Source of the DNA: an uncultured Nitrospiraceae bacterium
Lineage (GTDB): Bacteria > Nitrospirota > Thermodesulfovibrionia > UBA6902
DNA length: 64,000 bases
Reading direction: 5' to 3'
NCBI GenBank assembly: GCA_964393845.1
Contig: CAYMUX010000001.1
Coordinates: 17,556-81,555, forward strand
The notes under the pieces are model-generated. The model worked only from the letters and a program-made list of their open reading frames with translations, did not search any database and had not been told where the DNA came from. This document shows positions 18,438 through 50,795 of the stretch, in pieces; the stretch's first letter is position 1; the number at the start of each line of letters is the position of its first letter. Made by a program: the position numbers and the translations under genes.

Positions 18438-20381
18438 ATGGGAATCAGCGATTTAAGAGAAAGAAGAATAATATTCTTGCTGTCAGCAGGGGTAATTACC
18501 GGTTCAATAATCGGGCTTATTACATCTTTTTATTTCATCCTGTCAAATCGGTATATCCAATATGAAATGTATAGAATAGCGGCTTTTGTTTTTCGAGAAA
18601 ATATGAATTACAGTATTCTCTTTACTCTTGTCGGATTTGCGGGATTGTATATGCTCTGGTTTCTGCTCGTAGAAAAAATAAAATTTAATAAAATAAAAGT
18701 TGAATATTTCTATAAATTGGTAATCGTTATTTCCTTTATATGTATAGTCACTGATTTATTACTTAGGGTATTCGTAGATATTCCTTTACTATACGGGCTA
18801 AAAGATTTATTAAGAATATCGCATCGGTTTCTGCTGGGGCCAATGACGTTCCAGAAATTATTAGATACGGTAAACTCATTTCTTACAGGTTACATTATTT
18901 TAATTTGCATTGGCGCTATTGCCGTTCCCATTATATATCGCTTGCTCAAGAGGTTACCAACGGAAAAATTATCAAACTGTGCACAAAAGAAATATTTTGC
19001 GCATTCAGCTCTTGTTTTAGGTGCTTTTATATTAGTTTTAAACTTGAGTATTGTTATCGATAGAAGGATAAATACTCAGGATGGACCAAATGTTATTTTT
19101 ATTGTTGTTGACGCCCTGCGGGCGGATCATATCAGTAATTATGGATACGACAGATTAACCAGCCCGAATATTGATAGCCTGATCAACGATGGAATAGTGT
19201 TTGAAAATGCTATTAGCCAAGGCAACATGACAACGCTTTCAATGCCTTCCATGTTTACGGGACTATATACATCGGATCACGGAGCTCATATGTTGCGAAA
19301 AATAGAAACCAGATTTGCTCCTGTAAGTGATAGATTCACTACTATCGCAGAAGTTTTTAATAATGCCGGTTATATTACACAGGCGGTATCATGTCAGCCG
19401 TGGGTTTCTCCTGAAACTGGCTATGGCCAGGGATTTGACAGCTTTGAAATAGTCAGCGATTCAAGTGATAACTTATCTGATCAGATAACTGTTGAAAGAG
19501 CGCTTGAATGGATAAATAAGAAATCAGGTAAGAAATTTTTTCTTTTCCTTAATCTAATGGGTCCACATACACCATATAATCCGCCGCCGCCATATGATAC
19601 CCTGTATTTCTCAGAATATAAAAATAAATCAAAATTGATTTCGGATTTGAATAATTTCTATTTGCAGCAGAATCACGGAGAATATTACAAATTATTAATG
19701 GATACTAAAGGGGAGAATATATCCAAAGACGAGTTGAATCAATTAATGTCTTTATATGACGGGAAAATAACCTACACCGACTATCAAATCGGCCGTTTGA
19801 TTGATAAGTTGAAAGCGTTGAATATTTATGACAATACCATGATAGTTTTGACTGCGGACCATGGAGAGGCCTTCCTTGAGCATGGTATGTTTTTACACGG
19901 CAGAAGTCTTTATAATGAAGAACTTCATGTTCCGCTTATTATGACTTATCCGAATAAATTACCAAAGGGAAGGAAAGTAAAAGATATCGTGGAACTTGTT
20001 GATATATTACCTACAATCGCAAGTGTCACAGGCATCCCTGTATCCGGAATAAAAATGCGTGGAGTATCTTTATATCCTATGACTGATAATTCTGATCGTT
20101 TTGTTTATAGCGAAGGGAGCGGTCGCGTGAAATACAGGACTGATAAATGGAGCCTTATTTGTGACAGCAGCGATTGGATTTGTGAGCTCTATGATTTGGA
20201 AAATGACCGCAGCGAATTAAATAACATAATAGAAAGCAATCATAATATTGCTTCTGAGATGAAAAAAGGACTTTTTAAAGTAGTTGATAATAAAATGTAT
20301 CCTTCGGTCAGCACTGTCAAGGCCAGGATAATCCCCGAGGAAACAGAGAAGACTTTAAAATCATTGGGCTATTTGCGATAG
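18438..20381 (+). CDS. Membrane-anchored sulfatase-fold (alkaline phosphatase superfamily) transferase with LtaS/EptA/OpgB-like architecture and a C-terminal LKSLGYLR tail
   Basis: About 5 N-terminal TM helices. PNVIFIVVDALRADH metal-binding block. TSPNIDSL. TADHGEAF ... HG. Nucleophile region TTLSMPSM (no C/S-x-P-x-R). Confidence 0.75.
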   Translation: MGISDLRERRIIFLLSAGVITGSIIGLITSFYFILSNRYIQYEMYRIAAFVFRENMNYSILFTLVGFAGLYMLWFLLVEKIKFNKIKVEYFYKLVIVISFICIVTDLLLRVFVDIPLLYGLKDLLRISHRFLLGPMTFQKLLDTVNSFLTGYIILICIGAIAVPIIYRLLKRLPTEKLSNCAQKKYFAHSALVLGAFILVLNLSIVIDRRINTQDGPNVIFIVVDALRADHISNYGYDRLTSPNIDSLINDGIVFENAISQGNMTTLSMPSMFTGLYTSDHGAHMLRKIETRFAPVSDRFTTIAEVFNNAGYITQAVSCQPWVSPETGYGQGFDSFEIVSDSSDNLSDQITVERALEWINKKSGKKFFLFLNLMGPHTPYNPPPPYDTLYFSEYKNKSKLISDLNNFYLQQNHGEYYKLLMDTKGENISKDELNQLMSLYDGKITYTDYQIGRLIDKLKALNIYDNTMIVLTADHGEAFLEHGMFLHGRSLYNEELHVPLIMTYPNKLPKGRKVKDIVELVDILPTIASVTGIPVSGIKMRGVSLYPMTDNSDRFVYSEGSGRVKYRTDKWSLICDSSDWICELYDLENDRSELNNIIESNHNIASEMKKGLFKVVDNKMYPSVSTVKARIIPEETEKTLKSLGYLR

Positions 20382-27735: not shown

Positions 27736-29892
27736 ATGGGAATAAAGACCGGTTCCAGTTCAAGTTATTATAAGGATATCATTAAGTCGGTTGTAATTTG
27801 GACTTTGTGTATCTCCCTTTTTGAATCTTTTAAAATTACAATCAGCACTTCGGTGCGTTATATAGCGCCGTGGGATGTGTTTGTGATTTCTGTTGCCCTT
27901 TTCTTCACTTATTTGGTTATATGGGCGGCAGTCATGTTTCCGGCAGCTTTTTTGCTGAAGTCGTTTTTACAAAAAAGAGATATGTCTGAAGGAAGTCTGA
28001 CGACTATTTATTGCTCCGTAGCGCTGTTTTTGTATGAATTATTCTGGATTGTATATAAGTCCGCTTATGAAGGATTAACAAACACTTCCTACGGGGTGTT
28101 TTTTCCGTTGGCTCAATTAGTCCTTGCCGGTGTTATCGCATACGCTGTATTTCAACTTGCAGAGTTTCTCAGGAATAAGGGGCATCTGAAGCAGTTAGGG
28201 CTTAAATTATTCAGTTTATGGTTGACTGTCTTAGCTTACATGATGTTGAACATTTATTTGAAGTCATCCTTTGAACAGGGATTTAACTCGCTGTATTCTG
28301 TTTCACTCTTTGTATTATTTCTGGTGGTTTATAAAATATTGGTTGCCTTATTCAGAAAAGTCAGACTGAAATCTACCATGTCTGTTTTACTCCTGATTGT
28401 CACAAGAATAAAACTTTTTATAATCATCTCAGTTTCAGCAGCGCTTCTGTTTGGTTTTGCCTATTACGGCATGGCAAAAAAGACCGACATATCCTCAAGT
28501 CCTAATATCTTATTTATTTCAATCGATACCTTAAGGGCCGACCATCTCTCCTGTTACAGTGAAATCAAGGGGAAGACTTCACCTAACATTGACAGGATTG
28601 CTCAGAGCGGATATATATTTTCTAATGCGTATTCACCAACTACATGGACCCTTCCCGGACATGCTTCAATGATGACGGGTTTATTTCCTTCTTCCCATAA
28701 AGCGGACAGGAGCCTTCACCAGACATTAAGCCGTCCTGTAGATCCACTGTCTCCCTCTGTACTGACTCTTGCAGAAATCTTAAGAGAGAAAGGGTATCTG
28801 ACGGCCGGTATTATCAGCAACCCTTTCGTTTCCCGTTCATTCGGCATGGACCAGGGTTTCGAGTTTTATGATGATCAGGTGGATCTCTTCGAAGACGTGC
28901 GGTATTTATCATTGAAAGATGAATCAATGCTCTTTAAGCTTATCGAGATACTGAAGATAATTGATACAAACGATTATGATGGGGAGAGAAGAGTTGTGGA
29001 GGTAAATGAAAAGGCCTTCAGATGGCTTAACGATAACAAGGACAAGAAAGAACCCTTTTTTCTGTTTCTACACTACAATGAACCTCACTATAAATATGAA
29101 CCGCCGTCTCCATATAACAAAAACAGCGGCGGACGGGAGTTGCCTTATTTTGATGACATAGCGAGATTGAATAAAGGAGAATTTACTCTTAGTTCTTCAA
29201 GTCTAAAGGATATGCTGGATCTTTACGATGGAGAGATAACCTATCTGGACCATTACCTGGGATTGCTTTTTAATAAGCTTGATGATTGGCAGCTTCTAGA
29301 AAATACGGTTTTGATAATCACATCAGATCATGGAGAGAGTTTTAACGAGCATGAAGTATGGCAGCATGGAAACAGTTTATATGAAGAGCAGATTCGCGTA
29401 CCATTAATTATCCTCTATCCCAAATTAAAACCTGACGGCGTTATTAATAAAGATATTGTGCAAACTGTTGATTTGATGCCGACCGTTCTGGATCTTCTGA
29501 ACATCCCTGTCCCTGGAAATGTTCAGGGAAGAAGTCTTGTTCCCCTTCTAAAAGGAGAGACGGAACGCAACTTCAATCTCGCCTTTGCGGAAATTCGTCC
29601 GGACATTAACTGGAAGGCCCAAAACCCGAAATATGGAATTGGCATGAGAGCAGTGATTTATAAAGAGTGGAAGTATATTCAATCTGATGACGGAAAAGAA
29701 GAACTTTATAATTTAAGTGATGACCATAACGAAAATATTAATTTGATTCACAAAGAAAAAGAAAAAGCGGATGAAATTCGTAAAATATTAAACTCATGGT
29801 CAAGTGCCGTCACTCTTAATAATGGTGAAAAGCAGGAGAAAATAGACAGCGGCAGGCTGGAACAATTACGCTCGCTCGGGTATCTGAAGTAG
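27736..29892 (+). CDS. Membrane-anchored sulfatase-fold transferase (LtaS/OpgB-like) with C-terminal LRSLGYLK tail
   Basis: Multi-TM N-terminus. NILFISIDTLRADH. TSPNIDRIA. Nucleophile region WTLPGHASMMTG (Thr, His in place of Arg). TSDHGESF. Confidence 0.75.
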   Translation: MGIKTGSSSSYYKDIIKSVVIWTLCISLFESFKITISTSVRYIAPWDVFVISVALFFTYLVIWAAVMFPAAFLLKSFLQKRDMSEGSLTTIYCSVALFLYELFWIVYKSAYEGLTNTSYGVFFPLAQLVLAGVIAYAVFQLAEFLRNKGHLKQLGLKLFSLWLTVLAYMMLNIYLKSSFEQGFNSLYSVSLFVLFLVVYKILVALFRKVRLKSTMSVLLLIVTRIKLFIIISVSAALLFGFAYYGMAKKTDISSSPNILFISIDTLRADHLSCYSEIKGKTSPNIDRIAQSGYIFSNAYSPTTWTLPGHASMMTGLFPSSHKADRSLHQTLSRPVDPLSPSVLTLAEILREKGYLTAGIISNPFVSRSFGMDQGFEFYDDQVDLFEDVRYLSLKDESMLFKLIEILKIIDTNDYDGERRVVEVNEKAFRWLNDNKDKKEPFFLFLHYNEPHYKYEPPSPYNKNSGGRELPYFDDIARLNKGEFTLSSSSLKDMLDLYDGEITYLDHYLGLLFNKLDDWQLLENTVLIITSDHGESFNEHEVWQHGNSLYEEQIRVPLIILYPKLKPDGVINKDIVQTVDLMPTVLDLLNIPVPGNVQGRSLVPLLKGETERNFNLAFAEIRPDINWKAQNPKYGIGMRAVIYKEWKYIQSDDGKEELYNLSDDHNENINLIHKEKEKADEIRKILNSWSSAVTLNNGEKQEKIDSGRLEQLRSLGYLK

Positions 29893-29948: not shown

Positions 29949-32039
29949 TTGATTAATACAAGCAACGTAAATGAGAAAAGATATATAAGAGATATAGTCT
30001 TATTATTTTTTATTACCTTTACCATTTATTATTATGCCCTGATCAGTTTTTTTGTGGCTGAAGACCTGGTATGGATTTCACTTTTTAATCAAGTTGGTCT
30101 TAAGGATTTTTTTAAACTATATACACCGTTATCAAAGATCCCGGAGCAAGGCCCGGAGGCATTTATCAGGATTGTGACTATTGGTTTATGGGCATTTGAT
30201 TTCAATGTCTGGGGGCAAAATCCTTTTGGTTATCATTTGACTAATGTCAGTCTTCATTTTATAAATTCAGCTCTGCTTTATTTTATCGTTTATAAAAGCT
30301 CTGGGAACAGGTCTCTCGGCTTGTCCTCAGCTGTTCTTTTTTCAATTTTTCCCGGCAATGTCGAAGCAGTTGCGTGGATATGTGGAAGATTTGATGTTTT
30401 CAGCATATTTTTCTACCTATCTTCTCTTCTTCTCTTCATCATGTTTATTAGAGAAAAGAAAAGAATATTCTATTTTGTTTCTCTAACTGCAGCTTGCTTA
30501 GCTATATTGAGTAAAGAAATTGCTTATACTATTCCCTTCTCTATAATTTTATGGGATAGTTTTTTTGGGAGAGAATTCCGTAATGAAAAGATTCGTCAGC
30601 GGCTGTACTGGTATCTTCCATATTTCATGATGATGATTATCGCCCTTATCTGGCGCCTCTTTATTTTTAACGATGTGGGAGGTTATGGGGATGCAACAGG
30701 GAAATCGCTTCAGTTAACGAGTTACTTTAATAGATGGATTCTTGAGGGTCTGCTTATTAATTTCCCTTTAAGACTTATAGCGCCTTTTAATTATCAGGCA
30801 AATCAGACATATTGGTGGTATTTAGTAATAATTTTTTTAGCGTTCTTCGGTATTTTAATATTCTCAGCTTTCTTAAAAAAGAACATTCCAAAGGGACTTA
30901 TATTTTCTATATTGTTTATCTTTGTATCTATTTCTCCGGTATATAATATGTTGAATGGCGTAAGCCGTAATCTTCAGAGTTCCCGATTTCTATATCTGCC
31001 CTCTGCAGGATTTTGCATGGCTGTCAGTTACTTAATATTTCATGCTTTTAATGATACCCGTCTGCAAAAGAAACTAAAAACTGCCTCATTTGTTTTTTTA
31101 ATCGTAATTTATTCAATCACTGCTTTTCAGAACATAAAAATCTGGCATGAGTCATCTGATCTAGTCAGAGAAGTAACGGTCCAGGTCAAGAAACTCCATC
31201 CTTCCGTATCCGGGGATGCGCAGTTATTTTATCTTTTGCCATATGACATAAAAGGCTGGGTAATACCATTTAGCCCTGGTACCAGGGAGGTTACTTCATA
31301 TGCTTACAACTATTGGAAACCTAAAGGCTCATATGAAAATCTAAAAGAGAATGGTAATTTTAGCGCGTATTCTAAAGCATTCATAGATCAATATGTCAGG
31401 AACTATCCATTTGCCTCAACCATGTTATTAAACTATAACAATAAGACGAGAAATGAAACAATGAACAGGAAAATCCACGTTTCCAAGCTGTTAAAACATA
31501 TAAATCCTGACTCAAAAAATTATTTTTTATTATGGGATAAAGAAGAGCGCAGGCTTATAGACATTAGCGAAGAGTTTATGAATAACTTTACATCAAGGAC
31601 ACCCGTGCAGATTGATCATTATTCGATTCTGGATATGAATAATTTTGTCTACTGGAATATAGAATCTTTAAATGTAGAGAATGATAAAAATAATTTAAAA
31701 ATAATGTCAAACGGCAAAGGTATAAAACTGTCACGGTCCTTTCAAAATATTAATCCTCTGGATTTTGAGGAGATTGAAATAAAGGCCGGCGGCCATAGTA
31801 ATGGAAGAAAGCTTACAGCAATATTATCGTGGAATCAAACCAGGCCTGACAATTTATATGATAAGAAAGAATATCAGTTTGAGATTGTTATGGACAATGA
31901 ATTGAGAAGTTATCGGTTTAATTTAATAGATAATCTGGATTGGGCATTTGAAACAAATATCAGGGATATTGTTCTATCAACGAGCGATTTCGATGGGAAT
32001 TTGAGTATAGAGTGGATCAGGTTTAATAATAATATATGA
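29949..32039 (+). CDS. TMTC/DUF1736-like GT-C membrane glycosyltransferase
   Basis: NPFGYHLTNVSLHFINSALLYF ... PGNVEAVAWICGRFDV block characteristic of the DUF1736/PMT_2 region of TMTC-type O-mannosyltransferases. About 10 TM helices plus a C-terminal soluble domain of about 300 aa. TTG start. Confidence 0.55.
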   Translation: MINTSNVNEKRYIRDIVLLFFITFTIYYYALISFFVAEDLVWISLFNQVGLKDFFKLYTPLSKIPEQGPEAFIRIVTIGLWAFDFNVWGQNPFGYHLTNVSLHFINSALLYFIVYKSSGNRSLGLSSAVLFSIFPGNVEAVAWICGRFDVFSIFFYLSSLLLFIMFIREKKRIFYFVSLTAACLAILSKEIAYTIPFSIILWDSFFGREFRNEKIRQRLYWYLPYFMMMIIALIWRLFIFNDVGGYGDATGKSLQLTSYFNRWILEGLLINFPLRLIAPFNYQANQTYWWYLVIIFLAFFGILIFSAFLKKNIPKGLIFSILFIFVSISPVYNMLNGVSRNLQSSRFLYLPSAGFCMAVSYLIFHAFNDTRLQKKLKTASFVFLIVIYSITAFQNIKIWHESSDLVREVTVQVKKLHPSVSGDAQLFYLLPYDIKGWVIPFSPGTREVTSYAYNYWKPKGSYENLKENGNFSAYSKAFIDQYVRNYPFASTMLLNYNNKTRNETMNRKIHVSKLLKHINPDSKNYFLLWDKEERRLIDISEEFMNNFTSRTPVQIDHYSILDMNNFVYWNIESLNVENDKNNLKIMSNGKGIKLSRSFQNINPLDFEEIEIKAGGHSNGRKLTAILSWNQTRPDNLYDKKEYQFEIVMDNELRSYRFNLIDNLDWAFETNIRDIVLSTSDFDGNLSIEWIRFNNNI

Positions 32040-33925
32040 TGACACTAGATATAGAAAAAGAAAAATCAGGAAAAGATATTATTACAGCCATTACTATTGG
32101 TTTGATACTGGGCGTTTGTTTAGGAATCCTGGGTAGCTTTATCTCAATTTATTCTAACCGTTATTTTGAACAGGAAATGTATAAATTGATGCTGGATACA
32201 GTAGTATTTAATATTAATCTCAGTAGCGGATTTACTGTTTTTGTGTTCATGATGGCTGTTATTATTAAAATTTATTTTAAGAAAGATTTTCTCCAAAGAA
32301 GCGCTGTTACTTTTATAATTTTGAACCTGATATTCTTTCTCATTTTACATTATATAAAATCGGCGGAATTTCCCGACTTCATAGGAAACAGCAGCAATTT
32401 AGCTTATATGCTTATGGTTCCAATTCTTTCTTTGATAACTCTGTTAATTATATTGCTGATTCCCAGACTGATAGAGTATTTGGAGAATAAGAATATTCCA
32501 TCCATACGCTTCTCTCGCGTAAGGTGTATCGTAGTAGCAGCAACGTCTATTATATTAATAAACAGTTTTTATTATTTTATTCATTATAAGCAGAGGGAAC
32601 AGTGGCCGAATATTATTTTTATAAATATTGATACATTGAGGGCGGATCATTTAAGCGCATATGGATATTTCAGGGAAACAAGCCCGAATATAGATAGTTT
32701 TTCCACTCAGGGTGTATTATTTGAAAATACGGTAGTCGAAGCCCCTTTTACGATGGTTTCGGTTGCTTCACTATTTACTTCCCAATATCCATATACGCAC
32801 GGTGTCAGAGATCATCCGGACGTCAGAAATCATACATTAAATAAACAGAGTCTGACACTTGCCGAAGTACTGAATAATGCAGGATATGTTACTGCGGGTA
32901 TTACAGCCAACTCTCTTATTTCTCCCCAAAAGGGGTACGACCAGGGCTTTAATGTATATAAATATGCGGATATTGCCTCGGATGTCAATAATAAAAGTAT
33001 TAAATGGTTAAATAAGAACTTTCAAAAAAAGTTCTTCCTCTATATCCACTATATTGATCCTCACCTTGCATATGCTCCTCCCAATGAACATATTCAAACT
33101 TTTGATAAGGATTATGAAGGTGAGTTTAAATACAGCTTCCAAAGACCGATCAAGGATAAAATATTCGTTAGCGATCTGTCGGAAAGAGACTTTAATCATG
33201 CTATAGCCCTCTATGATGAGGAAATAAAATACACGGATTCTCAGATCGGGATTTTGCTTGTCAAGATAAAAGAATTGGGAATTTTCGATAATTCAATTAT
33301 TATTATCACTGCAGACCACGGAGAGAGCCTTGGGGAACATGGTGTTTATTTTGCGCATGATTTTTATTTATATGACCCAATGGTAAGAGTCCCTTTAATT
33401 ATCAAATTTCCGAATAACCAATATAAAAATAAAAAAATTAATGATGTAGTTCGAGTGATAGATATTATGCCCTCAATTTTGGATATTGCTCATATATCCA
33501 GTGCAAATATATATCAAGGGGTAAGTTTAGTGCCGACGATCAGTGAGGGGAAAAAAATGAATTTCTACGCTTATGCGGAATCATGCTCTTATAGACCTAA
33601 TTATGGATTTACTATTCCTATGGAGCAGCAGCGCTTTTACCTGCCCGGTATAAAGGGGAAAACAAGAATGGTGAGAAACGGAAAATGGAAACTAATCTAT
33701 ATCCCCGGGCGTACAGGAAGATTATTTGAACTTTATAATATTGAAGAGGACCCACATGAATTAAACAATATTTTAGATAATCACCCGGAAACCTTTCAGC
33801 AGTTAAAGCAGAATCTATTTGAATTTCTTGAAAAGGACACGCTGGAGTACGAAGATTACATTAACCCTAAAAAAATTGATCGGGGCACATTGGATGTTCT
33901 TAAGTCATTGGGTTACATAAAATAA
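32036..33925 (+). CDS. Membrane-anchored sulfatase-fold transferase with C-terminal LKSLGYIK tail
   Basis: Multi-TM N-terminus. NIIFINIDTLRADH. TSPNIDSF. Nucleophile region FTMVSVASLFTS. TADHGESLGEHG. Confidence 0.75.
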   Translation: MMTLDIEKEKSGKDIITAITIGLILGVCLGILGSFISIYSNRYFEQEMYKLMLDTVVFNINLSSGFTVFVFMMAVIIKIYFKKDFLQRSAVTFIILNLIFFLILHYIKSAEFPDFIGNSSNLAYMLMVPILSLITLLIILLIPRLIEYLENKNIPSIRFSRVRCIVVAATSIILINSFYYFIHYKQREQWPNIIFINIDTLRADHLSAYGYFRETSPNIDSFSTQGVLFENTVVEAPFTMVSVASLFTSQYPYTHGVRDHPDVRNHTLNKQSLTLAEVLNNAGYVTAGITANSLISPQKGYDQGFNVYKYADIASDVNNKSIKWLNKNFQKKFFLYIHYIDPHLAYAPPNEHIQTFDKDYEGEFKYSFQRPIKDKIFVSDLSERDFNHAIALYDEEIKYTDSQIGILLVKIKELGIFDNSIIIITADHGESLGEHGVYFAHDFYLYDPMVRVPLIIKFPNNQYKNKKINDVVRVIDIMPSILDIAHISSANIYQGVSLVPTISEGKKMNFYAYAESCSYRPNYGFTIPMEQQRFYLPGIKGKTRMVRNGKWKLIYIPGRTGRLFELYNIEEDPHELNNILDNHPETFQQLKQNLFEFLEKDTLEYEDYINPKKIDRGTLDVLKSLGYIK

Positions 33926-34054: not shown

Positions 34055-36172
34055 ATGAAACATATAAGCCATAGATTGCTGTGCGGATTGGTATTGGGAG
34101 TTATATATTATTTGGCTGAAGTAATATGGAATTTATCATTCGACAGACTTAATGTTGATGTTGTTCCGCTGATGACTGCCTTATTGATATATGCTGCCGG
34201 CTTCGGCCTTTTGGGTTTAATCGGAACCACAGGACTTGAATTGGTTTTCGGTTTAAAGGAGAAGATTGATAATTTCAGAGCCATTCAATGCGCGTGGATA
34301 ACCACTGCTATCGCAAATGCTTTTTTCGGAGGTAGTTACCTGATATTCAAGGTCTTCTTCTTTTCCTCCGGAATAAATAAAATCATTATCATTACAGTAC
34401 TGAGCTGTCTCACGGCGGTTTCATGTTACTTGCTTTACTATCTGATTAATAAATTTTTTATTAAAAAAGCAGACTATTTTAAGACAGTTCATTATTCCAC
34501 TCTTCTTTCGGCCAATATTTTTATGCTGATGGCCATTAAAGTGAATCTTGAATTAAGGACCCCTCCCTGGTCTTCCGGTAATCTGTTCCGGGATTTTATT
34601 ATATTACTTGTGAGTTCGGCTATAGGCGGGGTATGTTTTTTAATCTTAAGAAGTTTCGCAAAGGGGATGCCAAAACTACGGTTAAGCTTAATAATAATCA
34701 TAATGGTATCTGCTGGAATTGTTATATATTCTCTTTATGGTAAAGTTACAAATAATAAATCTATTGGCAGACAGGCTGATAAAATCTTGTCTAAGAATGT
34801 CAGTCCAGTCACTCCTGTTATCTTGATTACTTTAGATACATTGCGTGCTGACCACCTGGGTGTTTACGGATATGGGAGAGAAACGAGCCCGAATATTGAC
34901 AGGTTTGCCAAGGACGGGGTGCTTTGGGAAAATGCAATCGTTCAAGTTCCTCTGACGCGACCTTCTCATTTCTCCATACTATCCGGGAGATATCCTTCAT
35001 CTCATGGTTTGCTTGATAACTTCAGTGCGACACCTGAAAATGTACCATTATTGTCTAATATTTTGGGAGTAAACGGCTATGAGACGGCAGCATTTGTCAG
35101 CGCCGCTGTTTTAAATTCGAGCTTTAATACAAAGCTTGGGTTCCAGGTGTATTCCGACCGGATTGAAAATGTTGTTTTCGATAACAGCTTTTTGCTGGTT
35201 TTCAGTTTAAGAAAGATAGAGGTCATTAGCCGGATAAAGGCCGAGAACAGCGCCAGTGAGACTAATAAAAAGGTTTTTACATGGTTAAAAGAAAATGAGA
35301 AAGGTCCCTTTTTCATGTGGGTGCATTACTTTGATCCTCACACTCCTTATAGTCCTGATCCATCTTTCAGAAAAATGTTCACTGATAGCGATTATGACAT
35401 ACAGAAATATTATAGCTACGAGTGGGAGAAGGAGAATTACGACAGCGTGCAGAAAAAAGTGCATATTGACGAAAAAATTACTCACTATGCTGTTGCTCTG
35501 TATGATGCAGAAATTAGAACTTTAGATAATGAATTGGGCAGTTTGTTTAATCAATTAAAGGAGTTGAAACTGTATGAAAGAAGCTTGATTATATTAACCG
35601 CAGATCATGGAGAGAGTTTTGATCACGGATATTATTTTGATCATGGGGACCGACTCTATGAGGGGCTGATCCGGGTACCTCTAATCATAAAGTTCCCCAA
35701 AGAAAAATGGCAGGGTAAGACAATAGAGACACAGGTTAAGTCCATTGATATTGCCCCGACGATTATAGAATATCTATCTTTAAAACATTCTGAAAAAATG
35801 GATGGTAAAAGTATGATCTCACAGGCCTCAAATAATGATAATAATTTACCGGTGGAGACGAGTTACGCCTATTCTCAAACCCCTTATCAGGGATTTTTCT
35901 ATTACAAGGCAAAAGAACTGCAATCTATCAGGAGCAACAAATGGAAGTACATTTATGATGTCAGGACAGGGGCGCCGGAACTTTACGATATTAATTCTGA
36001 CCCCGGTGAACAAAATAATTTTGCTTCTTCCCGGCCGGATATCCTGAAGGAATTCAATTCAGAGTTGTTAAACTTTACTAATAGTATTAATAAAGATAAC
36101 GGCAGATCGAAAACTATAGAGATAGATAGTACAACAAAGGACCAGTTGAAAAGCCTCGGTTATATTAAATGA
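34055..36172 (+). CDS. Membrane-anchored sulfatase-fold transferase with C-terminal LKSLGYIK tail
   Basis: Multi-TM N-terminus. ILITLDTLRADH. TSPNIDRFA. Nucleophile region PLTRPSHFSILSG (T-x-P-x-H). TADHGESF. Confidence 0.75.
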   Translation: MKHISHRLLCGLVLGVIYYLAEVIWNLSFDRLNVDVVPLMTALLIYAAGFGLLGLIGTTGLELVFGLKEKIDNFRAIQCAWITTAIANAFFGGSYLIFKVFFFSSGINKIIIITVLSCLTAVSCYLLYYLINKFFIKKADYFKTVHYSTLLSANIFMLMAIKVNLELRTPPWSSGNLFRDFIILLVSSAIGGVCFLILRSFAKGMPKLRLSLIIIIMVSAGIVIYSLYGKVTNNKSIGRQADKILSKNVSPVTPVILITLDTLRADHLGVYGYGRETSPNIDRFAKDGVLWENAIVQVPLTRPSHFSILSGRYPSSHGLLDNFSATPENVPLLSNILGVNGYETAAFVSAAVLNSSFNTKLGFQVYSDRIENVVFDNSFLLVFSLRKIEVISRIKAENSASETNKKVFTWLKENEKGPFFMWVHYFDPHTPYSPDPSFRKMFTDSDYDIQKYYSYEWEKENYDSVQKKVHIDEKITHYAVALYDAEIRTLDNELGSLFNQLKELKLYERSLIILTADHGESFDHGYYFDHGDRLYEGLIRVPLIIKFPKEKWQGKTIETQVKSIDIAPTIIEYLSLKHSEKMDGKSMISQASNNDNNLPVETSYAYSQTPYQGFFYYKAKELQSIRSNKWKYIYDVRTGAPELYDINSDPGEQNNFASSRPDILKEFNSELLNFTNSINKDNGRSKTIEIDSTTKDQLKSLGYIK

Positions 36173-36227: not shown

Positions 36228-38390
36228 ATGAAATTAGAGAAATTGAGCTTCAGAAAAAATTTGTACTCCGGTGCAATACATGGTGCAGTCGCCTGGATAA
36301 TTTACGGGATAGTGGAATGTTTATTTTCGACTATCTTGCCATGGCTGACCAAACCTCATTATGACTATATTCCAATGCACTGGGGTTTTGCGTTTTTATT
36401 GTTATTCGTGATTTATCCCCTTATCGGTTCAATCCTGGGAGGATTATTGGCATTAGTTTTATCTAAAGCAGGGGGGAAGGTCAATTTTCTTCGGGAAAAT
36501 CACATTGAAGGTTTATATCAGTCGGCGGCGGTATTAACGGTCGTTTTGGTATTTTCCGTAAACCTTATCATTCAATTACCCTTAGATGACCTTTCTGTGC
36601 TGCTTGCTTTGTTAATGGCCGTCATATTTACAGTCGCGATTATAATGAGCTTACTCTCGAATAATAATTTCAAGAAGCTTCGATTCCTAACGAATCCCTG
36701 GGTCACGAGTTTATCACTGATCGGATTGCTCTGGGTAAGCAAGGAATTATTGAGAGACCATTCTGTTACCTTCAAAGCTGTTGTAGTCCCGGTTTATCTA
36801 TTTATATGCTTTTTTGTTTCATCTTTAATTCAGAAAAAGATTAATGCGAAAGGATTTAGAGAATCTTCAGACAAAAAGCCTGCAATATCAATCAGCTATT
36901 TTGCCTTCCTCATGGCTGCTTCATTAATACTTATTTGTACAAGTTTAATTATGATCCAGAGCCCTATCAGGACAAAGTGGAGTGTTAAATCGTCCCATAA
37001 AGATCGAGAACGTCCTAACGTAATATTGATATCCATGGATACAGTACGTGCAGACCATCTCTCTTTATACGGATACGAAAGGGACACGACTCCGAATCTC
37101 AAAAAGTTTGCGGAAGAGGCTACCTTATATACCCATGCAGTATCTTCAGGGGACATGACCTTAACTTCTCATGCGTCTATTTTTACTGGTATGTATGCAA
37201 GACAGCATGGAGCACATCGTGAGCCGCCTGATTATGTGGCTGGCCGGCCGTTAGATGAAAAGTTTCATACACTGGCGGAAAAACTGTCTGAAAACGGCTA
37301 TCTTACAATAGGAGTTGTATCAAATTACTCTTATCTTGGAAAGGGTTTTTATCTTGATCAGGGATTCAACTATTACGATTATCGGACACAGGTTCCGTTT
37401 ATTGGAAGAGCACATCAATATTATCTCAGACAAAATATTCGTGAAGCCGCGAAATATTATGCCCCTCCTTCCCTGTATGAGGAAACGCGCTCTGCGGAAG
37501 ACATAAATAATGAAGTTTTCAAGCTCGTTGATAAAGTAAAAAAAGAGAATGCTCCGTTCTTCCTTTTTGTCAATTACATGGACGCACACTGGCCATATAT
37601 CCCCCCTCCTCCGTTCGATTCTTTGTACCCGGGCAAGAAAGGGGTTTTTACTTTATCCCATTATCTGCGACTTAAAAAACAAGTTATGAATTTTGAGCGC
37701 AATATTACAGAGGAAGAACAGCGCCATCTGATATCGCAATATGACGGTGGTATTGCTTACATCGACTTTCAAATCAGAGAATTATGTCAGCGACTGAAAG
37801 AAGCAGGTTTATATCAGAACTCTATCATAATTATTACGTCAGACCATGGTGAGGCTTTTGGGGACAGGAATTTGATGGAACACGGGGTGTCCGTATATCA
37901 GGACCTTGTTTATGTGCCCCTGATTATCAAATATCCGTACCAGAAAAATAACAAAGTAATTGATGAACCTGTCAGTGTTACCGATATTATGCCGACTGTC
38001 CTGGAAGTCCTTGGATACAAAATACCTGAAGACGTCCAGGGAAATAGTTTGTTGAGTAATTCACGCGAAAGGTCATTAAGTGTTGTGAGCGAATCATTTT
38101 TTAAAGAAAAAGGGATCAGGTATAACTCAAGATTTGACCGTATTGAACGTGCAATATATTCCGGCTCTCTTAAATATATCAGTTCCACAACAGGAAAAAG
38201 GGAGCTTTACGATCTTCTTAAGGACCCTAAAGAGAGGGAAAACATATACAATTCTGATAGCAGCATATCTAAGGATTTTGAGAACAGACTTAACCAATGG
38301 CTTGAAATGAATGTTTATAAAGCCGGATCAACCACGGAATTAAAACAAGAAGTTATTGATCGCCTTAAGACATTGGGTTATATCCAGTGA
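36228..38390 (+). CDS. Membrane-anchored sulfatase-fold transferase with C-terminal LKTLGYIQ tail
   Basis: Multi-TM N-terminus. NVILISMDTVRADH. TTPNLKKFA. Nucleophile region DMTLTSHASIFTG. TSDHGEAF. Confidence 0.75.
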   Translation: MKLEKLSFRKNLYSGAIHGAVAWIIYGIVECLFSTILPWLTKPHYDYIPMHWGFAFLLLFVIYPLIGSILGGLLALVLSKAGGKVNFLRENHIEGLYQSAAVLTVVLVFSVNLIIQLPLDDLSVLLALLMAVIFTVAIIMSLLSNNNFKKLRFLTNPWVTSLSLIGLLWVSKELLRDHSVTFKAVVVPVYLFICFFVSSLIQKKINAKGFRESSDKKPAISISYFAFLMAASLILICTSLIMIQSPIRTKWSVKSSHKDRERPNVILISMDTVRADHLSLYGYERDTTPNLKKFAEEATLYTHAVSSGDMTLTSHASIFTGMYARQHGAHREPPDYVAGRPLDEKFHTLAEKLSENGYLTIGVVSNYSYLGKGFYLDQGFNYYDYRTQVPFIGRAHQYYLRQNIREAAKYYAPPSLYEETRSAEDINNEVFKLVDKVKKENAPFFLFVNYMDAHWPYIPPPPFDSLYPGKKGVFTLSHYLRLKKQVMNFERNITEEEQRHLISQYDGGIAYIDFQIRELCQRLKEAGLYQNSIIIITSDHGEAFGDRNLMEHGVSVYQDLVYVPLIIKYPYQKNNKVIDEPVSVTDIMPTVLEVLGYKIPEDVQGNSLLSNSRERSLSVVSESFFKEKGIRYNSRFDRIERAIYSGSLKYISSTTGKRELYDLLKDPKERENIYNSDSSISKDFENRLNQWLEMNVYKAGSTTELKQEVIDRLKTLGYIQ

Positions 38391-45716: not shown

Positions 45717-47817
45717 TCGATTTTTAAATATAAAAAGACATCTGCTTACAGGTATCCTTGCTTTATTTCTGATATGCTGCGCAGATTATGCCTTTGCATA
45801 TATCGGTCCCGGTGCGGGCTTTGCACTGGTAACATCGTTTTTTGTAATATTTGTTTCTCTAATTATCGCTTTCGTTTCATTCCTCATATGGCCGTTCCGG
45901 CATATCAGGTGGATGTTTTTAAGGAAAAAACGAGACAGAAAAACGGATGTCAAAAAAGTGGTTGTATTAGGTCTTGATGGTATGGATCCCTGTATTGCCG
46001 AAAAATTTATGGCAGAAGGGAAACTGCCGAATTTTCAGAAGCTGAAAGACACAGGATGCTTTTCGAGACTTCGCACAACATTCCCCGCTGTGTCGCCGGT
46101 CGCATGGTCTTCATTTGCAACGTCTGTCTACCCTGGGAAACATAATATCTTTGATTTCCTCACTCCGAACAGAAACTATTATATAGCCGATTTATCTTCC
46201 GTTCATATAGGCACGGTAAAACGCAATCTGAAAATTGGTAAATACAAGATACCCTTGGGAAAGCCGGAGATCAAACTGCACCGGAAGAGTCAAACTTTCT
46301 GGAAGGTGCTGGGTGAATACGGGATTTTCAGTACGATCTTGAGAGTGCCTATAACGTTCCCGCCGGAAAAATTTTTCGGCAATTGCCTTTCCGCAATGTG
46401 CATTCCCGACCTGAAAGGAACGCAAGGTTCTTTTACTTACTATACGTCTGACTCAAAACAAACAGGCGAGATGTACGAAGGCGAAAGAATCTTCGTAGAA
46501 AATAATAACGGAACAATTACAAGTTATTTCCCCGGTCCGGCCAATCCTATATTGATAGAGGAAGCGCCGTTAAGAATCCCCTTTAAAGTGGAAGTGAAAG
46601 ATCCCGACAACGCGGTCCTGCATCTCCCTGATCAAAAAATAAAATTGAGGCGCGGACATTACTCCGACTGGATCAAGCTGCGTTATAACTTAGGCCTGGG
46701 CATGAAAATATCAGGCATTGCAAGGGTATTGATTAAATCTTTTCAGCCGCACTTTTCAATGTACGTAACTCCGATTAATATCGATCCGGAAAAGCCCGTT
46801 CTTCCCATTTCTCATCCCGGTATATTTTCGGTGTACCAGGCCAAGCTGCATGGAAGTTTTTCTACGCTCGGACTTTCCGAAGATACATGGGCCCTTAACG
46901 AACGAATTATAGATGAGGATGATTTTATTAAACAGGCTTACGATATTCATGAAGAGCGGGAAAAGATGTTTATGCATGCGTTGAAGAGTACCAGCCAGGG
47001 ACTTGTAGTCTCTGTTTTCGATATAACGGACCGCATGCAGCATATGTTTATCCGGTTCCTGTATGATGACCATCCTGCCGTCAAGGACGCAGATGTCAAG
47101 AAGTACAGGAATGTAGTTGAGGACCTCTATGTTAATATGGACAAGCTTCTGGAAAAAACGCTGAGTTCTCTGGACGATGATACGGTCTTATTCGTTATCT
47201 CAGATCATGGCTTTAAACCTTTCATGTGGGGTTTTCACGTAAATTCCTGGTTACACAAAGAGGGCTATATGGTCTTGAAATCGGGAGACGAGAGCAAAGC
47301 CTGGTTTGAAAATGTCGACTGGAGCAAAACAAGGGCTTATTGCCTCGGAATGGCAGGCATCTATATTAATATCAAAGGCCGCGAAGCTAAGGGGATCGTT
47401 GCCAGGGATGGTGAAGAAGCTGAATTAAGAAAAGAAATTAAAGAAAAACTTGTCAAATTTATAAACCCGGCGACAAATCAGCCTGTGCTGAATGATGTCT
47501 TCGATTCAAAAGAGATTTTTTCAGGCCCGTATAAAGAAAACGCCCCTGATCTGATCCTGGGATACAACGAAGGGTACAGGGTTTCCTGGGATGCTGCGAT
47601 AGGAAAGGTCACAAAAGATATTATTGAGGATAACACAAAGAGCTGGAGCGCCGACCACTGCATTGACCCGCGATTGGTGCCGGGGGTGCTTTTTTCAAAC
47701 AGAAAAATTAATTCCGACAGCCCGTCAATCGTTGATATGGGCGCAACCATTTTAAACCTTTTCGGTATCAACCCACCGGCTTATATGGACGGAAAGAATA
47801 TTTTAGAGGAAAAATGA
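45700..47817 (+). CDS. Membrane-anchored type I phosphodiesterase/nucleotide pyrophosphatase-fold (alkaline phosphatase superfamily) protein
   Basis: Two N-terminal TM helices. VVLGLDGMDP. TTFPAVSPVAWSSFATSVYPGKHNIFDF (NPP-like Thr nucleophile block T-F-P ... TG-x-YP-x-HGI). ISDHGF. Confidence 0.7.
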   Translation: MNLRFNRFLNIKRHLLTGILALFLICCADYAFAYIGPGAGFALVTSFFVIFVSLIIAFVSFLIWPFRHIRWMFLRKKRDRKTDVKKVVVLGLDGMDPCIAEKFMAEGKLPNFQKLKDTGCFSRLRTTFPAVSPVAWSSFATSVYPGKHNIFDFLTPNRNYYIADLSSVHIGTVKRNLKIGKYKIPLGKPEIKLHRKSQTFWKVLGEYGIFSTILRVPITFPPEKFFGNCLSAMCIPDLKGTQGSFTYYTSDSKQTGEMYEGERIFVENNNGTITSYFPGPANPILIEEAPLRIPFKVEVKDPDNAVLHLPDQKIKLRRGHYSDWIKLRYNLGLGMKISGIARVLIKSFQPHFSMYVTPINIDPEKPVLPISHPGIFSVYQAKLHGSFSTLGLSEDTWALNERIIDEDDFIKQAYDIHEEREKMFMHALKSTSQGLVVSVFDITDRMQHMFIRFLYDDHPAVKDADVKKYRNVVEDLYVNMDKLLEKTLSSLDDDTVLFVISDHGFKPFMWGFHVNSWLHKEGYMVLKSGDESKAWFENVDWSKTRAYCLGMAGIYINIKGREAKGIVARDGEEAELRKEIKEKLVKFINPATNQPVLNDVFDSKEIFSGPYKENAPDLILGYNEGYRVSWDAAIGKVTKDIIEDNTKSWSADHCIDPRLVPGVLFSNRKINSDSPSIVDMGATILNLFGINPPAYMDGKNILEEK

Positions 47818-49760
47818 AAAATAACTTTTTTACTTCAGGCCTGATATTTATTTTAATAATAATTTCTTTTACCGCTGCTGTTGCAGGGGACAAGAAATTT
47901 ATCATACTCGGGATTGATGGTATGGATTACACCATGTTGAGCGAGATGATAGAACGGGGTGAAATGCCCAATTTTGCAAAATTCAGGGAGTCAGGGGATT
48001 TTAAGCCGCTTTTAAGCAGCATCCCGCCACAAAGCCCGGTCGCCTGGTCGAATTTTATCACAGGGATGGACCCCGGCGGACATGGTATTTTTGATTTTAT
48101 TCACAGAACGCCCGAAGATCTTCTTCCTTACCTTTCTACTTCAAAAACCGAATCACCGTCAAAAGTTCTTTCTATCGGGAAATACCGGATACCTTTAAAA
48201 AGCGAAGAGATAAAATTATTGAGAAAAGGGAAACCTTTCTGGGATATTCTTGAAGAACACGGGGTCCCTACAACGATTATTTCAATTCCCGCGAATTTTC
48301 CGTCAATCAAAAGCGCCGGACGCTCTCTGTCCGGGATGGGAACACCGGATATCCTGGGCTCTTATGGCTCATTCACCTATTTAACATCGGACCCGAAGGA
48401 CAGAGACAAAAAGGTAACCGGCGGCGTAATACATTCAGTTGAAGTCAGAGACAATCAGGTCGATAGTTTTATTCCGGGACCGGCTAATACACTTGTCGAG
48501 GGCAGGCCTTCAACGCGAATTGACGTTAAGACGTATATTGATCCGGAGAACAGTGTTGCAAAAATTGTGGTCAACGGTAACGATATCCTGTTATCCAAAG
48601 GGGAATGGAGCGAGTTTGTCCGGATCAAATTTGAGATGATACCCCATATAGTCAGTGTTTCAGGGATCGTCCGGTTTTATTTAAAAGAAGTCCATCCTTA
48701 TTTTAAACTCTATATTTCCCCGGTCAATATTGATCCCTCTGATCCTGCCATGCCGATTTCAAACCCCGAAGATTATGCAAAAGAATTATATAAGAACATC
48801 GGCTTTTTTTATACTCAGGGGATATCGGAAGATACAAAGGCGCTTGATAACGGCATCTTGTCGGAGGATGAATTTCTGCAGCAGGCCCAGGTCGTGCTGA
48901 GAGACAGGCTGAAGATTCTTGATTATGAATTGAAGAGGTTTAAAAAGGGGCTGCTCTTTTTTTATATTTCTACTATAGATACGAGCAGTCACATGTTCTG
49001 GCGATATATTGCAAAGGACCATCCTGACTATAACACCGAGGAGTACAAAAAATACCGGAATGTCATGTATGACCTCTATAAGAGAATGGACGTTATTCTG
49101 GCCGATGTCCTTAAGCGCGTTGATGATAATACTGTTGTCATGATCATGTCGGACCACGGGTTCGCGGATTTTCAATGGCAGGTGAACATTAATTCATGGC
49201 TGGCAAAAGAAGGGTATATAGCAATGCTGCCCGACTGGACGCCTGAACAGGAATATTTTGAATCAGTGAAATGGTCCGGGACAAAGGCGTATGCGCTCGG
49301 CATCAACGGATTATATATCAATCTCAGAGACCGGGAACTGCACGGCATAGTCGGCCCCGGCAGCGAATATAAAAATCTTGTCGATGAAATAGCTTCAAAA
49401 CTGGAAGCGATGACAGACCCGAAAACCGGAAAGCGGGTCATAAGACAAGCGTTTAAAAAGGATGAGGCATATCATGGTTCCTCCATGGATAACGCTCCGG
49501 ACATAGTCGTCGGTTTTTACCGCGGCTATCGTTCCTCTGATGAAAGCGCGCTCGGTCAGTTTTCCAGAGATATCATAATCGAAAATACAAGAAAATGGGG
49601 CAGTGATCATTGCATGGATTACCGCGAGGTCCCGGGGATTGTTCTTGTAAATAAAAAAATAACTCTGAAAGAACCGGAGCTTTATGATATTGCGCCCACA
49701 ATTCTTAAAGAGTTCGGTATCGATCCTTTACCGGAAATGGTTGGGAAATCCATCTATTAG
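47814..49760 (+). CDS. Membrane-anchored type I phosphodiesterase/NPP-fold protein, tandem paralog
   Basis: Signal/anchor. FIILGIDGMDY. PPQSPVAWSNFITGMDPGGHGIFDF. MSDHGF. Confidence 0.7.
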   Translation: MKNNFFTSGLIFILIIISFTAAVAGDKKFIILGIDGMDYTMLSEMIERGEMPNFAKFRESGDFKPLLSSIPPQSPVAWSNFITGMDPGGHGIFDFIHRTPEDLLPYLSTSKTESPSKVLSIGKYRIPLKSEEIKLLRKGKPFWDILEEHGVPTTIISIPANFPSIKSAGRSLSGMGTPDILGSYGSFTYLTSDPKDRDKKVTGGVIHSVEVRDNQVDSFIPGPANTLVEGRPSTRIDVKTYIDPENSVAKIVVNGNDILLSKGEWSEFVRIKFEMIPHIVSVSGIVRFYLKEVHPYFKLYISPVNIDPSDPAMPISNPEDYAKELYKNIGFFYTQGISEDTKALDNGILSEDEFLQQAQVVLRDRLKILDYELKRFKKGLLFFYISTIDTSSHMFWRYIAKDHPDYNTEEYKKYRNVMYDLYKRMDVILADVLKRVDDNTVVMIMSDHGFADFQWQVNINSWLAKEGYIAMLPDWTPEQEYFESVKWSGTKAYALGINGLYINLRDRELHGIVGPGSEYKNLVDEIASKLEAMTDPKTGKRVIRQAFKKDEAYHGSSMDNAPDIVVGFYRGYRSSDESALGQFSRDIIIENTRKWGSDHCMDYREVPGIVLVNKKITLKEPELYDIAPTILKEFGIDPLPEMVGKSIY

Positions 49761-49776
49761 TTTGTGAGGAGGTCAT

Positions 49777-49968
49777 GTGTTTGGTCCAAAAATAAAACTC
49801 TCAAAAGATTTATATGAAAAGGTAAAACAGCTCGCTGAACTCTCCGGTTATTCATCCGTTGATGAATTTGTTGTGCATGTCCTGGAGAAAGAGATAACAA
49901 AGATCAATCAGGATGACGATGAAGAAAAAGTCAAAGAGCGTCTAAAAGGTCTGGGGTATATTTCATAA
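49777..49968 (+). CDS. Small ribbon-helix-helix-like protein (63 aa) ending in the LKGLGYIS tail shared with the sulfatase-fold paralogs
   Basis: KIKLSKDLYEKVKQLAELSGYSSVDEFVVHVLEKEI resembles a CopG/ParD-type RHH (beta strand plus two helices). C-terminal ERLKGLGYIS. Confidence 0.5.
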   Translation: MFGPKIKLSKDLYEKVKQLAELSGYSSVDEFVVHVLEKEITKINQDDDEEKVKERLKGLGYIS

Positions 49969-49970
49969 TC

Positions 49971-50795
49971 ATGGCACTTATTTTTAATATTATTAACGGT
50001 ATCTTCAGAGTACTGTTCTATCCCTTCGAGAATTTAAATCCGGCATGGGGAATGATATGGATATCTTCAGTGGCCGGTGTCCTAATGCTGATAATTTTCC
50101 GTTTTACATCAAACCAGGAGGGGATCAAAAAGTCGAAAGCAAAAGTAAGCGCCTATATACTTGAGATGCGGCTGTTCAACCATGATCTCGGGAAGATGCT
50201 TGCATCCCTTGGAAGGACCTTATGGGCAAACATGGTGTATCTTCGTTTCATGCTTGTCCCTCTCGGCTTTATTATTATTCCTGTGTTGATAGTTTTAATC
50301 CAAACAAGTTACCGATATGAAAACCGTCCTTTGCAGCCTGGTGAAGCGGTAATAGTCAAGGCCATATTGAAAAAGGATTTTTCCGTTGTCGATACCCCTG
50401 TAGAGTTAAAGGCCCCGGACGGGGTCGTTGTCGAGACGGGCGCATTAAGGATCGCATCTCTGAATGAAGTAGACTGGCGTATAAGTTCTCAGAAAGCAGG
50501 GAATTACGAACTTATCTTTCATGTAAATGGTAAGAAATACAGCAAGAGTCTTCATGCAGAAGAGGGACTGCCCGTTCTCAGTATAGAGAGGGCAGGTTCA
50601 TCATTTGCTTCACTGCTTTTAAATCATTCCGAACCGAGGCTTCAGGATGACTCTCCTTTTATTTCTTTACATGTTTCATATCCTGACAGGGCGTTAAAGA
50701 TAATAGGATTTGAGCTCCATTGGATTATCTGGTTTTGTATCTTCTCGGTAATTTTCAGTTTTGCCTTTAAAGGTATTTTCAAGGTAGAACTGTAA
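49971..50795 (+). CDS. Hypothetical membrane protein
   Basis: 3-4 hydrophobic segments and a soluble domain of about 120 aa. No recognisable motif. Confidence 0.45.
   Translation: MALIFNIINGIFRVLFYPFENLNPAWGMIWISSVAGVLMLIIFRFTSNQEGIKKSKAKVSAYILEMRLFNHDLGKMLASLGRTLWANMVYLRFMLVPLGFIIIPVLIVLIQTSYRYENRPLQPGEAVIVKAILKKDFSVVDTPVELKAPDGVVVETGALRIASLNEVDWRISSQKAGNYELIFHVNGKKYSKSLHAEEGLPVLSIERAGSSFASLLLNHSEPRLQDDSPFISLHVSYPDRALKIIGFELHWIIWFCIFSVIFSFAFKGIFKVEL

Follow-up and report, generated by a model that had tools for sequence, protein, structure and literature searches.

A 63-residue ribbon-helix-helix protein carrying a recurrent C-terminal tail, encoded in a portable cassette with PF01663 enzymes and an EMC3/TMCO1-like membrane protein

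The 63-codon open reading frame at positions 49777..49968 (forward strand) of the 64-kb stretch of DNA analysed here (hereafter the window) encodes the product MFGPKIKLSKDLYEKVKQLAELSGYSSVDEFVVHVLEKEITKINQDDDEEKVKERLKGLGYIS, a cytoplasmic protein built of two parts: a ribbon-helix-helix (RHH) domain and an amphipathic third helix ending in L-K-G-L-G-Y-I-S. Its gene is a fixed and dedicated part of a portable cassette, inside an operon, in which two genes of the PF01663 family, the 63-aa gene and a gene for an EMC3/TMCO1-like membrane protein follow each other with near-universal synteny. The C-terminal peptide of this protein (the LGY tail) is a module found on three unrelated folds, namely RHH, APS kinase and sulfatase, within one functional neighbourhood, which suggests that it is an undescribed docking tag linking parts of a cell-envelope sulfation/modification system. 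The reading that we favour, tentatively, is that the 63-aa protein would be a dimeric regulatory adaptor docking through its tail on a partner of this system.

The 63-aa protein, its fold and its conservation

The initial annotation of this gene had recognised, in the N-terminal part of the product, the strand-helix-helix pattern of CopG/ParD-type proteins, and each of the segments that it quoted agrees exactly with the translated frame. This proposal is borne out: the fold of the 63-aa protein is RHH, an N-terminal β-strand being followed by two helices. The initial annotation had named a missing RHH fold together with a poorly conserved ORF as the outcome that would speak against it, and neither of the two was seen, the topology being that of an RHH protein and the conservation broad. 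Helix 2 opens with a canonical G-x-S-S N-cap (GYSS), while the ribbon displays a K-x-K motif with invariant K5 and K7. The net charge is 0 for the RHH domain and -2 for the whole protein. In the AF2 monomer model, helix 3 reaches a pLDDT of about 85-88 and residues 1-9 are extended and partnerless. As the RHH domain forms an intertwined dimer in every characterised relative, the 63-aa protein would by analogy be dimeric, and as DNA binding is a property of almost all characterised RHH proteins, it may also bind DNA. No promoter or terminator signal above chance was found around the gene, whose features are collected in Table 1.

Regarding its family membership, the protein does not reach the Pfam threshold for RHH_1 (PF01402; E = 0.0043, 17.4 bits versus a cut-off of 20.5), and the sister subfamilies described below score 15.5-16.6 bits against the same model. 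The best-scoring Pfam family, over residues 4-32, is DUF7557 (PF24434; E = 0.0034, 17.2 bits, below the 25-bit cut-off), with a match that spans the strand and helix 1 only; to our knowledge, this family has no known function. The NCBIfam NikR match is also subthreshold (E = 0.049, 13.6 bits versus a cut-off of 83), and the ACT-like tetramerisation and nickel-binding domain of NikR is absent, only a 20-residue stretch of linker and helix being found past the RHH domain. Many homologs are annotated by JGI as CopG/Arc/MetJ regulators, and many of the structural neighbours of the protein are RHH antitoxins (TacA, MazE, ParD). In the PDB, no chain was found that carries the LGY tail or that is a sequence relative of the 63-aa family. 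By fold, the closest known proteins are the CopG/Arc/MetJ RHH proteins (PF01402), especially the N-terminal domain of NikR. Where NikR has its metal-binding domain, however, the 63-aa protein has a helix of 15 residues whose LGYIS end is invariant; its RHH domain is without net positive charge and its gene occupies a fixed position in the middle of an operon.

The family is large and widely distributed. A word-index search returned 435 homologs, nearly all of them 63-64 aa long, from Nitrospirae, Planctomycetes, Acidobacteria, Eisenbacteria and other groups, and in an exhaustive profile search 1,013 cluster representatives scored E ≤ 1e-3, of which 326 also passed E ≤ 1e-10. When species-representative genomes were scanned, the family turned up in at least 567 genomes of more than 10 phyla, nearly all of them uncultured MAGs, which added Gemmatimonadota, Krumholzibacteriia, Armatimonadota, Fibrobacteraceae, Methylomirabilota, Brocadiaceae and Entotheonella to its distribution. 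These hundreds of full-length homologs, conserved at the protein level, rule out a spurious small ORF. In a cross-phylum alignment, K5, K7, L12, G24, Y25, S27, E30, H34, E37, E39, L56, G58, L59, G60, Y61 and S63 are invariant, and M1, F2, G3, P4, S26, F31, L36, K38, K53 and I62 are conserved in at least 90% of the sequences; the invariant positions are thus concentrated in the ribbon, helix 2 and the tail, whereas helix 1 and the linker are variable. Apparent family members devoid of the tail proved to be frameshift artefacts, apparent fusions of the RHH protein with PF01663 (P0123, P0237 and others) were judged to be upstream ORF extensions or read-through, and one homolog (P0121) is a tandem duplication.

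Table 1. Features of the 63-aa gene, its cassette and the other tailed genes of the window
Feature	Position	Strand	Remarks
Cassette gene 1: 705-aa PF01663 (AlkP-superfamily) protein, N-terminal TM hairpin, K/R-rich segment	45700..47817	+	synteny 54/56
Cassette gene 2: 648-aa PF01663 protein, single N-terminal signal/anchor segment	47814..49760	+	synteny 67/67
Shine-Dalgarno GAGGAGG, 4 nt before the GTG, just past the stop codon of the upstream PF01663 gene	49766..49772	+	read from the sequence
CDS, 63-aa RHH + LGY-tail protein (cassette gene 3)	49777..49968	+	GTG start, TAA stop
Ribbon-helix-helix domain, residues 4-43 (strand PKIKLS, helix 10-23, helix 28-43)	49786..49905	+	
Acidic linker NQDDD, residues 44-48	49906..49920	+	sequence and length vary across the family
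Tail module EEKVKERLKGLGYIS, residues 49-63 (third helix 49-59, then GYIS)	49921..49965	+	
Cassette gene 4: 274-aa three-TM protein, EMC3/TMCO1 (DUF106, Oxa1-superfamily)-like	49971..50795	+	synteny 71/72
Tailed sulfatase-family membrane protein, ...EKTLKSLGYLR end	18438..20381	+	
Tailed sulfatase-family membrane protein, ...LEQLRSLGYLK end	27736..29892	+	
Tailed sulfatase-family membrane protein, ...LDVLKSLGYIK end	32036..33925	+	
Tailed sulfatase-family membrane protein, ...KDQLKSLGYIK end	34055..36172	+	
Tailed sulfatase-family membrane protein, ...IDRLKTLGYIQ end	36228..38390	+	

A four-gene cassette with changing surroundings

Synteny was counted in 80 further genomes, at the loci with enough flanking sequence: a PF01663 gene lies directly upstream of the 63-aa gene at all 67 loci and a second one at 54 of 56, and a homolog of the membrane protein directly downstream at 71 of 72, although, as the 63-aa protein served as bait for gathering the loci, part of its association with PF01663 stems from the sampling itself. 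The neighbourhoods read in Eisenbacteria, Planctomycetota, Acidobacteriota and a fourth MAG display an identical four-gene order, with PF01663 proteins of about 690-740 and about 650-680 aa and a membrane protein of 269-275 aa, for which no Pfam match was obtained at these four distant loci. Intergenic gaps around the 63-aa gene are short (10-17 nt upstream and 2-28 nt downstream), the start codon of the 274-aa gene of the window being placed 2 nt past the stop codon of the 63-aa gene. Among the four cassette members, the 63-aa protein is the most conserved, with a median identity to the window copy of 62% versus 48%, 45% and 33% for its three neighbours.

The genes flanking the cassette, in contrast, differ completely between genomes and phyla. 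The 63-aa gene, kept in the same cassette amid changing flanks, therefore belongs to a portable module as a fixed component and is not a regulator of the 64-kb glycan cluster in which the window copy resides. The initial annotation had proposed a transcriptional regulator of the locus, which does not fit with a gene that travels with its cassette, that is located mid-operon and that is tightly coupled to its neighbours. Its description of a gene embedded between enzyme genes is right upstream, where the two PF01663 genes encode phosphodiesterase-type enzymes, but not downstream, where the next gene encodes a membrane protein and no enzyme.

This membrane protein resembles TMCO1/EMC3 both in fold and in sequence. 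It contains a cytosolic coiled-coil hairpin, at the start of which is found its most conserved motif, T-S-N-Q, and a β-sandwich of about 130 aa between TM2 and TM3. Descriptions of DUF106-type proteins come from archaea and eukaryotes, not from bacteria (PMC5868721). As for the paired long PF01663 proteins, for which the PDB contains no sequence relative, crude hydropathy and positive-inside reasoning predict that the catalytic domain of the 705-aa protein faces the cytoplasm and that of the 648-aa protein faces outward. The TM hairpin of the 705-aa protein harbours a conserved Y-I-G-P-G-A-G loop. Together with an insertase/scramblase-like neighbour, these opposite topologies suggest a relay from the cytoplasm to the periplasm.

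In the window, all 46 long genes (positions 1-64000) are encoded on the forward strand, with very short gaps and a positive GC skew throughout, and they form one 64-kb co-directional supercluster for glycan biosynthesis and modification. Its content includes GT2, GT4 and PMT_2-type transferases, B12-radical-SAM enzymes, methyltransferases, YdjC, a deacetylase with DUF3473, a FemAB/GNAT protein and a carbamoyltransferase. The two B12-binding radical SAM enzymes (5167-6669 and 22270-23685) are encoded near SAM methyltransferases and GT2 genes and may carry out C-methylation or another radical tailoring of the polysaccharide.

The LGY tail and its carriers

In a six-frame scan of the window, five further long ORFs were found to terminate in the motif L[KR]xLGY[IL]x, and all of them encode PF00884 sulfatase proteins with SGSH_C and multi-TM N-terminal regions (Table 1). 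Six of the 48 proteins of the window thus carry the tail, versus about 7e-5 expected from its amino-acid composition; the adjoining PF01663 genes (45700-47817 and 47814-49760) are without it. As the synonymous sites differ among the tails, selection acts at the level of the peptide; with unrelated downstream sequences in addition, an RNA element or a repeat is ruled out as the source of the shared tail. The five tailed genes belong to a set of six paralogs, all for membrane proteins of the sulfatase family, that are interspersed with PMT_2/GT-C-like genes between 18438 and 40526; the sixth paralog (38463-40526) is tail-less. True sulfatase activity of the tailed enzymes is doubtful. Indeed, none of the six paralogs matches the C/S-x-P/A-x-R pattern, and at the position of the formylglycine motif (C/S-x-P-x-R) the paralog at 18438-20381 has S-M-P-S-M, which is devoid of Arg. 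To judge from these motifs, the six probably use Ser directly as the nucleophile, as transferases or hydrolases, and are not FGly sulfatases.

Beyond the window, the tail follows the consensus [S/T/D]xEE-h-xx-h-[KR]x[KR]L[KR]xLGY[IL](x). It extends past the kinase domain of APS kinases in 11 fetched loci, ends, in 6 loci, the proteins (about 75-85 aa) of a second RHH-like family, whose gene is usually the first one before ATP sulfurylase, and is present on sulfatase-family proteins in about 10 loci, often directly upstream of the cassette, in addition to the five of the window. The name of sulfatase tail given to it by the initial annotation is hence correct in that the tail is shared with the five sulfatase-family proteins of the window, but too narrow, since APS kinases and RHH subfamilies carry it as well. 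A tail-only profile search, run with a tandem-repeat query, gave 12 matches at E ≤ 10: 9 are small RHH-like proteins that have an acidic linker and end in ...EEEEEIKxRLRxLGY[IL]x, and the remaining 3 are one C-terminal fragment of an APS kinase and two of sulfatases. A 20-kb locus of an Armatimonadota MAG (WVXJ01000176.1) contains about eight LGY-tailed ORFs, including small proteins and C-terminal fragments of sulfatases, and this hotspot could help to define the range of tail carriers. No relevant literature was found on the tail, on the cassette or on links between RHH proteins and sulfation.

The tailed RHH subfamilies are homologous over both domain and tail, as illustrated by the alignment of two of their profiles, A1 and A6 (hhalign probability 99.3%, E 3.8e-20, 59 aligned columns including the tail), and the 63-aa family is one branch of an 'RHH + LGY-tail' superfamily. 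Association with PF01663 and/or sulfate-activation genes was found in the window and in loci L001-L086, L088, L089, L094 and L096/97; neither is present at L090, on a short contig. The gene orders are RHH-tail, Sat, DHH, APS kinase and PF01663 in L088, PF01663, RHH-tail and CysD in L089, and PF01663, DUF2061, RHH-tail and a CysD-like gene in L096/97. In L094, the RHH-tail gene is divergent from a CysD-like gene, while a 73-aa gene in L001 and a 71-aa gene in L088 each precede Sat.

The operons of L001 (1207-5784) and L088 (11434-15747) encode ATP sulfurylase, APS kinase and a soluble PF01663 protein of about 440-460 aa, together with, in L088 only, a DHH phosphoesterase that is likely a pAp phosphatase. 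No canonical sulfotransferase is found in these two operons, and the soluble PF01663 protein may be the PAPS-consuming enzyme, a chemistry which would be unusual for this fold. The natural C-terminus of APS kinase is itself LGY-like (...TLELMGYIP, or ...FLIRNSYI in the tail-less copy; L001 3831-4442, L088 12841-13374), and the appended tail, preceded by an acidic linker, resembles a duplicate of this helix end, a possible clue to how the module arose.

Tailed sulfatases have either five N-terminal TM helices, in an LtaS/EptA-like manner, or lipoprotein signal peptides, and their tails are predicted from these sequences to be extracytoplasmic, with those of the APS kinases and RHH proteins being cytoplasmic. 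With carriers in both compartments, a single cytoplasmic receptor therefore cannot explain all of them. One possibility is a receptor family present on both membrane faces, PF01663 being the only constant neighbour and predicted on both sides; another is that the tail is recognised before export, and a third one that it is a self-contained structural or oligomerisation element. The helix-L-x-x-L-G-Y sequence is also found internally in the threonine synthase of E. coli; helix-LxxLGY is a common helix-end motif and part of the similarity between tails could reflect structural convergence. Recognition of the C-terminus in the manner of HbYX or PDZ-type systems was judged unlikely, as 0, 1 or 3 chemically variable residues follow LGY[IL].

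Possible functions of the protein and of its tail

Several families of proteins offer points of comparison. RHH antitoxins (ParD, RelB, FitA, TacA, MazE-RHH) combine an N-terminal RHH dimer with a helical C-terminal tail, which binds a partner protein from their own operon, and this design may be the best analogy for the way in which the 63-aa protein works. Its gene, however, has AlkP-superfamily enzymes and an Oxa1-superfamily-like membrane protein as neighbours instead of a toxin, and, in contrast to antitoxin tails, the sequence of its tail is also borne by unrelated enzymes. Similarly to the cargo-loading peptides of encapsulins, the encapsulation peptides of microcompartments and the C-terminal tail of SSB, the LGY tail is a short conserved terminal peptide, preceded by a flexible and often acidic linker, on unrelated proteins of one system. 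It differs from them by an unrelated sequence motif and by carriers located on both sides of the membrane, and Pfam scans of most long ORFs of the window revealed no encapsulin or microcompartment shell family. Finally, the Get3-Get1 coiled coil and the cpSRP43-Alb3 tail are reminiscent of the present pair in that a small cytosolic protein is encoded beside, and probably co-translated with, a three-TM coiled-coil protein, but neither in sequence nor in fold is the 63-aa protein related to Get3 or cpSRP43.

Our preferred reading is that the 63-aa protein would function in the manner of an RHH antitoxin that lacks a toxin. Its RHH dimer would form a bivalent core, possibly with an operator-binding ribbon, and each of the tails would dock onto a protein partner of the system. 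Because all tail-bearing proteins have PF01663 as their sole constant neighbour, with members predicted on either side of the membrane, this enzyme family would be the simplest candidate receptor, the cytosolic coiled coil of the EMC3/TMCO1-like protein being an alternative one. APS kinases and sulfatase-family enzymes, which possess the same docking helix, would share or compete for one site; PAPS supply and modifying enzymes would in this way be co-assembled at the membrane, and the availability of the RHH protein would possibly be tied to the state of assembly. An adaptor of, or a competitor for, whatever recognises the tail had been put forward by the initial annotation as well, and it is a viable proposal, to which the tails found in sulfate-activation and PF01663 contexts lend indirect support. 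A more elaborate version holds that the LGY tail is a system-specific tag docking APS kinases, sulfatase-family and RHH proteins onto a trans-membrane modification machine made of the paired PF01663 proteins and the bacterial EMC3/TMCO1-type protein, with the RHH dimer as a bivalent hub or gatekeeper which might couple expression to occupancy; put so specifically, we consider the proposal unlikely.

A possible, though doubtful, alternative is that the protein is a classical RHH repressor of the cassette or of sulfation genes, whose LGY helix would serve for oligomerisation as a dimer of dimers or for co-repressor binding, as in Mnt, AmrZ and NikR, the tails of the enzymes then reflecting cross-talk between enzymes and regulator or convergence. 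The RHH fold with its canonical helix-2 N-cap and its invariant ribbon lysines is consistent with such a function, and so are the regulator labels that JGI assigns to many members and the position of the sister genes in L001, L088 and L094, at operon heads or divergent, which is typical of regulators. Conversely, the 63-aa gene is always the third of its cassette and tightly coupled to the membrane-protein gene, neither its RHH domain nor the whole protein is positively charged and the Pfam RHH_1 score is below threshold. In addition, an N-terminus kept invariant as MFGPK and an identity of 62% over more than 10 phyla would be unusual for a DNA-reading ribbon unless the operator were equally invariant. 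Upstream of the cassette, no k-mer is shared among 57 loci beyond the levels of shuffled sequences, in what is a weak test, and the one enriched k-mer, GAGCTCGA, is coding sequence for the 'EELERL' sulfatase tail of an upstream gene; a stricter search for an intergenic operator met with a clean non-coding gap in one locus only, these genomes being of high GC content. As for a type II antitoxin, to which the many RHH antitoxins among the structural neighbours could point, or a mere artefact of ORF calling, both are most improbable: in about 85 loci no toxin gene lies beside the 63-aa gene and PADLOC returned no match, which rules out a type II toxin-antitoxin or defence system, and the full-length homologs number in the hundreds.

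The immediate vicinity of the EMC3/TMCO1-like protein invites another explanation, which we hold to be improbable, namely that the 63-aa dimer is a soluble cofactor or targeting factor sitting on the coiled coil of this protein, following the logic of Get3/Get1 and cpSRP43/Alb3, the LGY tail being a C-terminal address for clients which would include sulfatases before their export. In line with this explanation, the membrane-protein gene is directly downstream, at a distance of 2-28 nt, in nearly all loci, its product resembles TMCO1/EMC3 in fold and sequence and has its conserved T-S-N-Q at the start of the cytosolic hairpin, and coiled coils of the Oxa1 superfamily dock soluble factors (PMC5868721). 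Nevertheless, the operons of L088, L089 and L096, with RHH-tail or tailed APS kinase genes, have no EMC3/TMCO1-like gene nearby, the tail is amphipathic and is not a transmembrane tail anchor, and the tailed sulfatases already possess N-terminal signal peptides or TM domains. Alternatively, the tail could have no common partner and be a helix cap or self-association element in each carrier, without functional link between the 63-aa protein and the sulfatases. Its presence in both compartments, the frequent L-x-x-L-G-Y helix ends of unrelated proteins, the tail-like natural C-terminus of APS kinase and the pLDDT of helix 3, high even in a monomer, are compatible with this view. We nonetheless give it little chance, as the motif is found only at the extreme C-terminus, after a flexible acidic linker, on three unrelated folds and in the same functional neighbourhoods, with an extreme enrichment in the window, where the tail-less paralog at 38463-40526 is what would be expected for an add-on module.

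Even on a conservative reading, these proteins make up an RHH family that is large, unnamed, distinctive in architecture and set in a clear functional neighbourhood, and that merits its own family model. It is, however, the portable tail and the cassette, more than the RHH domain, that make this system of interest. The conserved cassette contains a putative bacterial relative of EMC3/TMCO1, a branch of the Oxa1 superfamily known so far from archaea and eukaryotes, and for the role of soluble partner of this membrane protein the most obvious candidate is the 63-aa protein. If the docking proposal is true, a C-terminal peptide of 15 residues would be a portable address label, by which small RHH proteins, AlkP-superfamily enzymes and PAPS synthesis would be joined across hundreds of bacteria, mostly uncultured, of at least 10 phyla, and an uncharacterised pathway of envelope sulfation or phospho-modification would become experimentally approachable through the tail peptide and its receptor.
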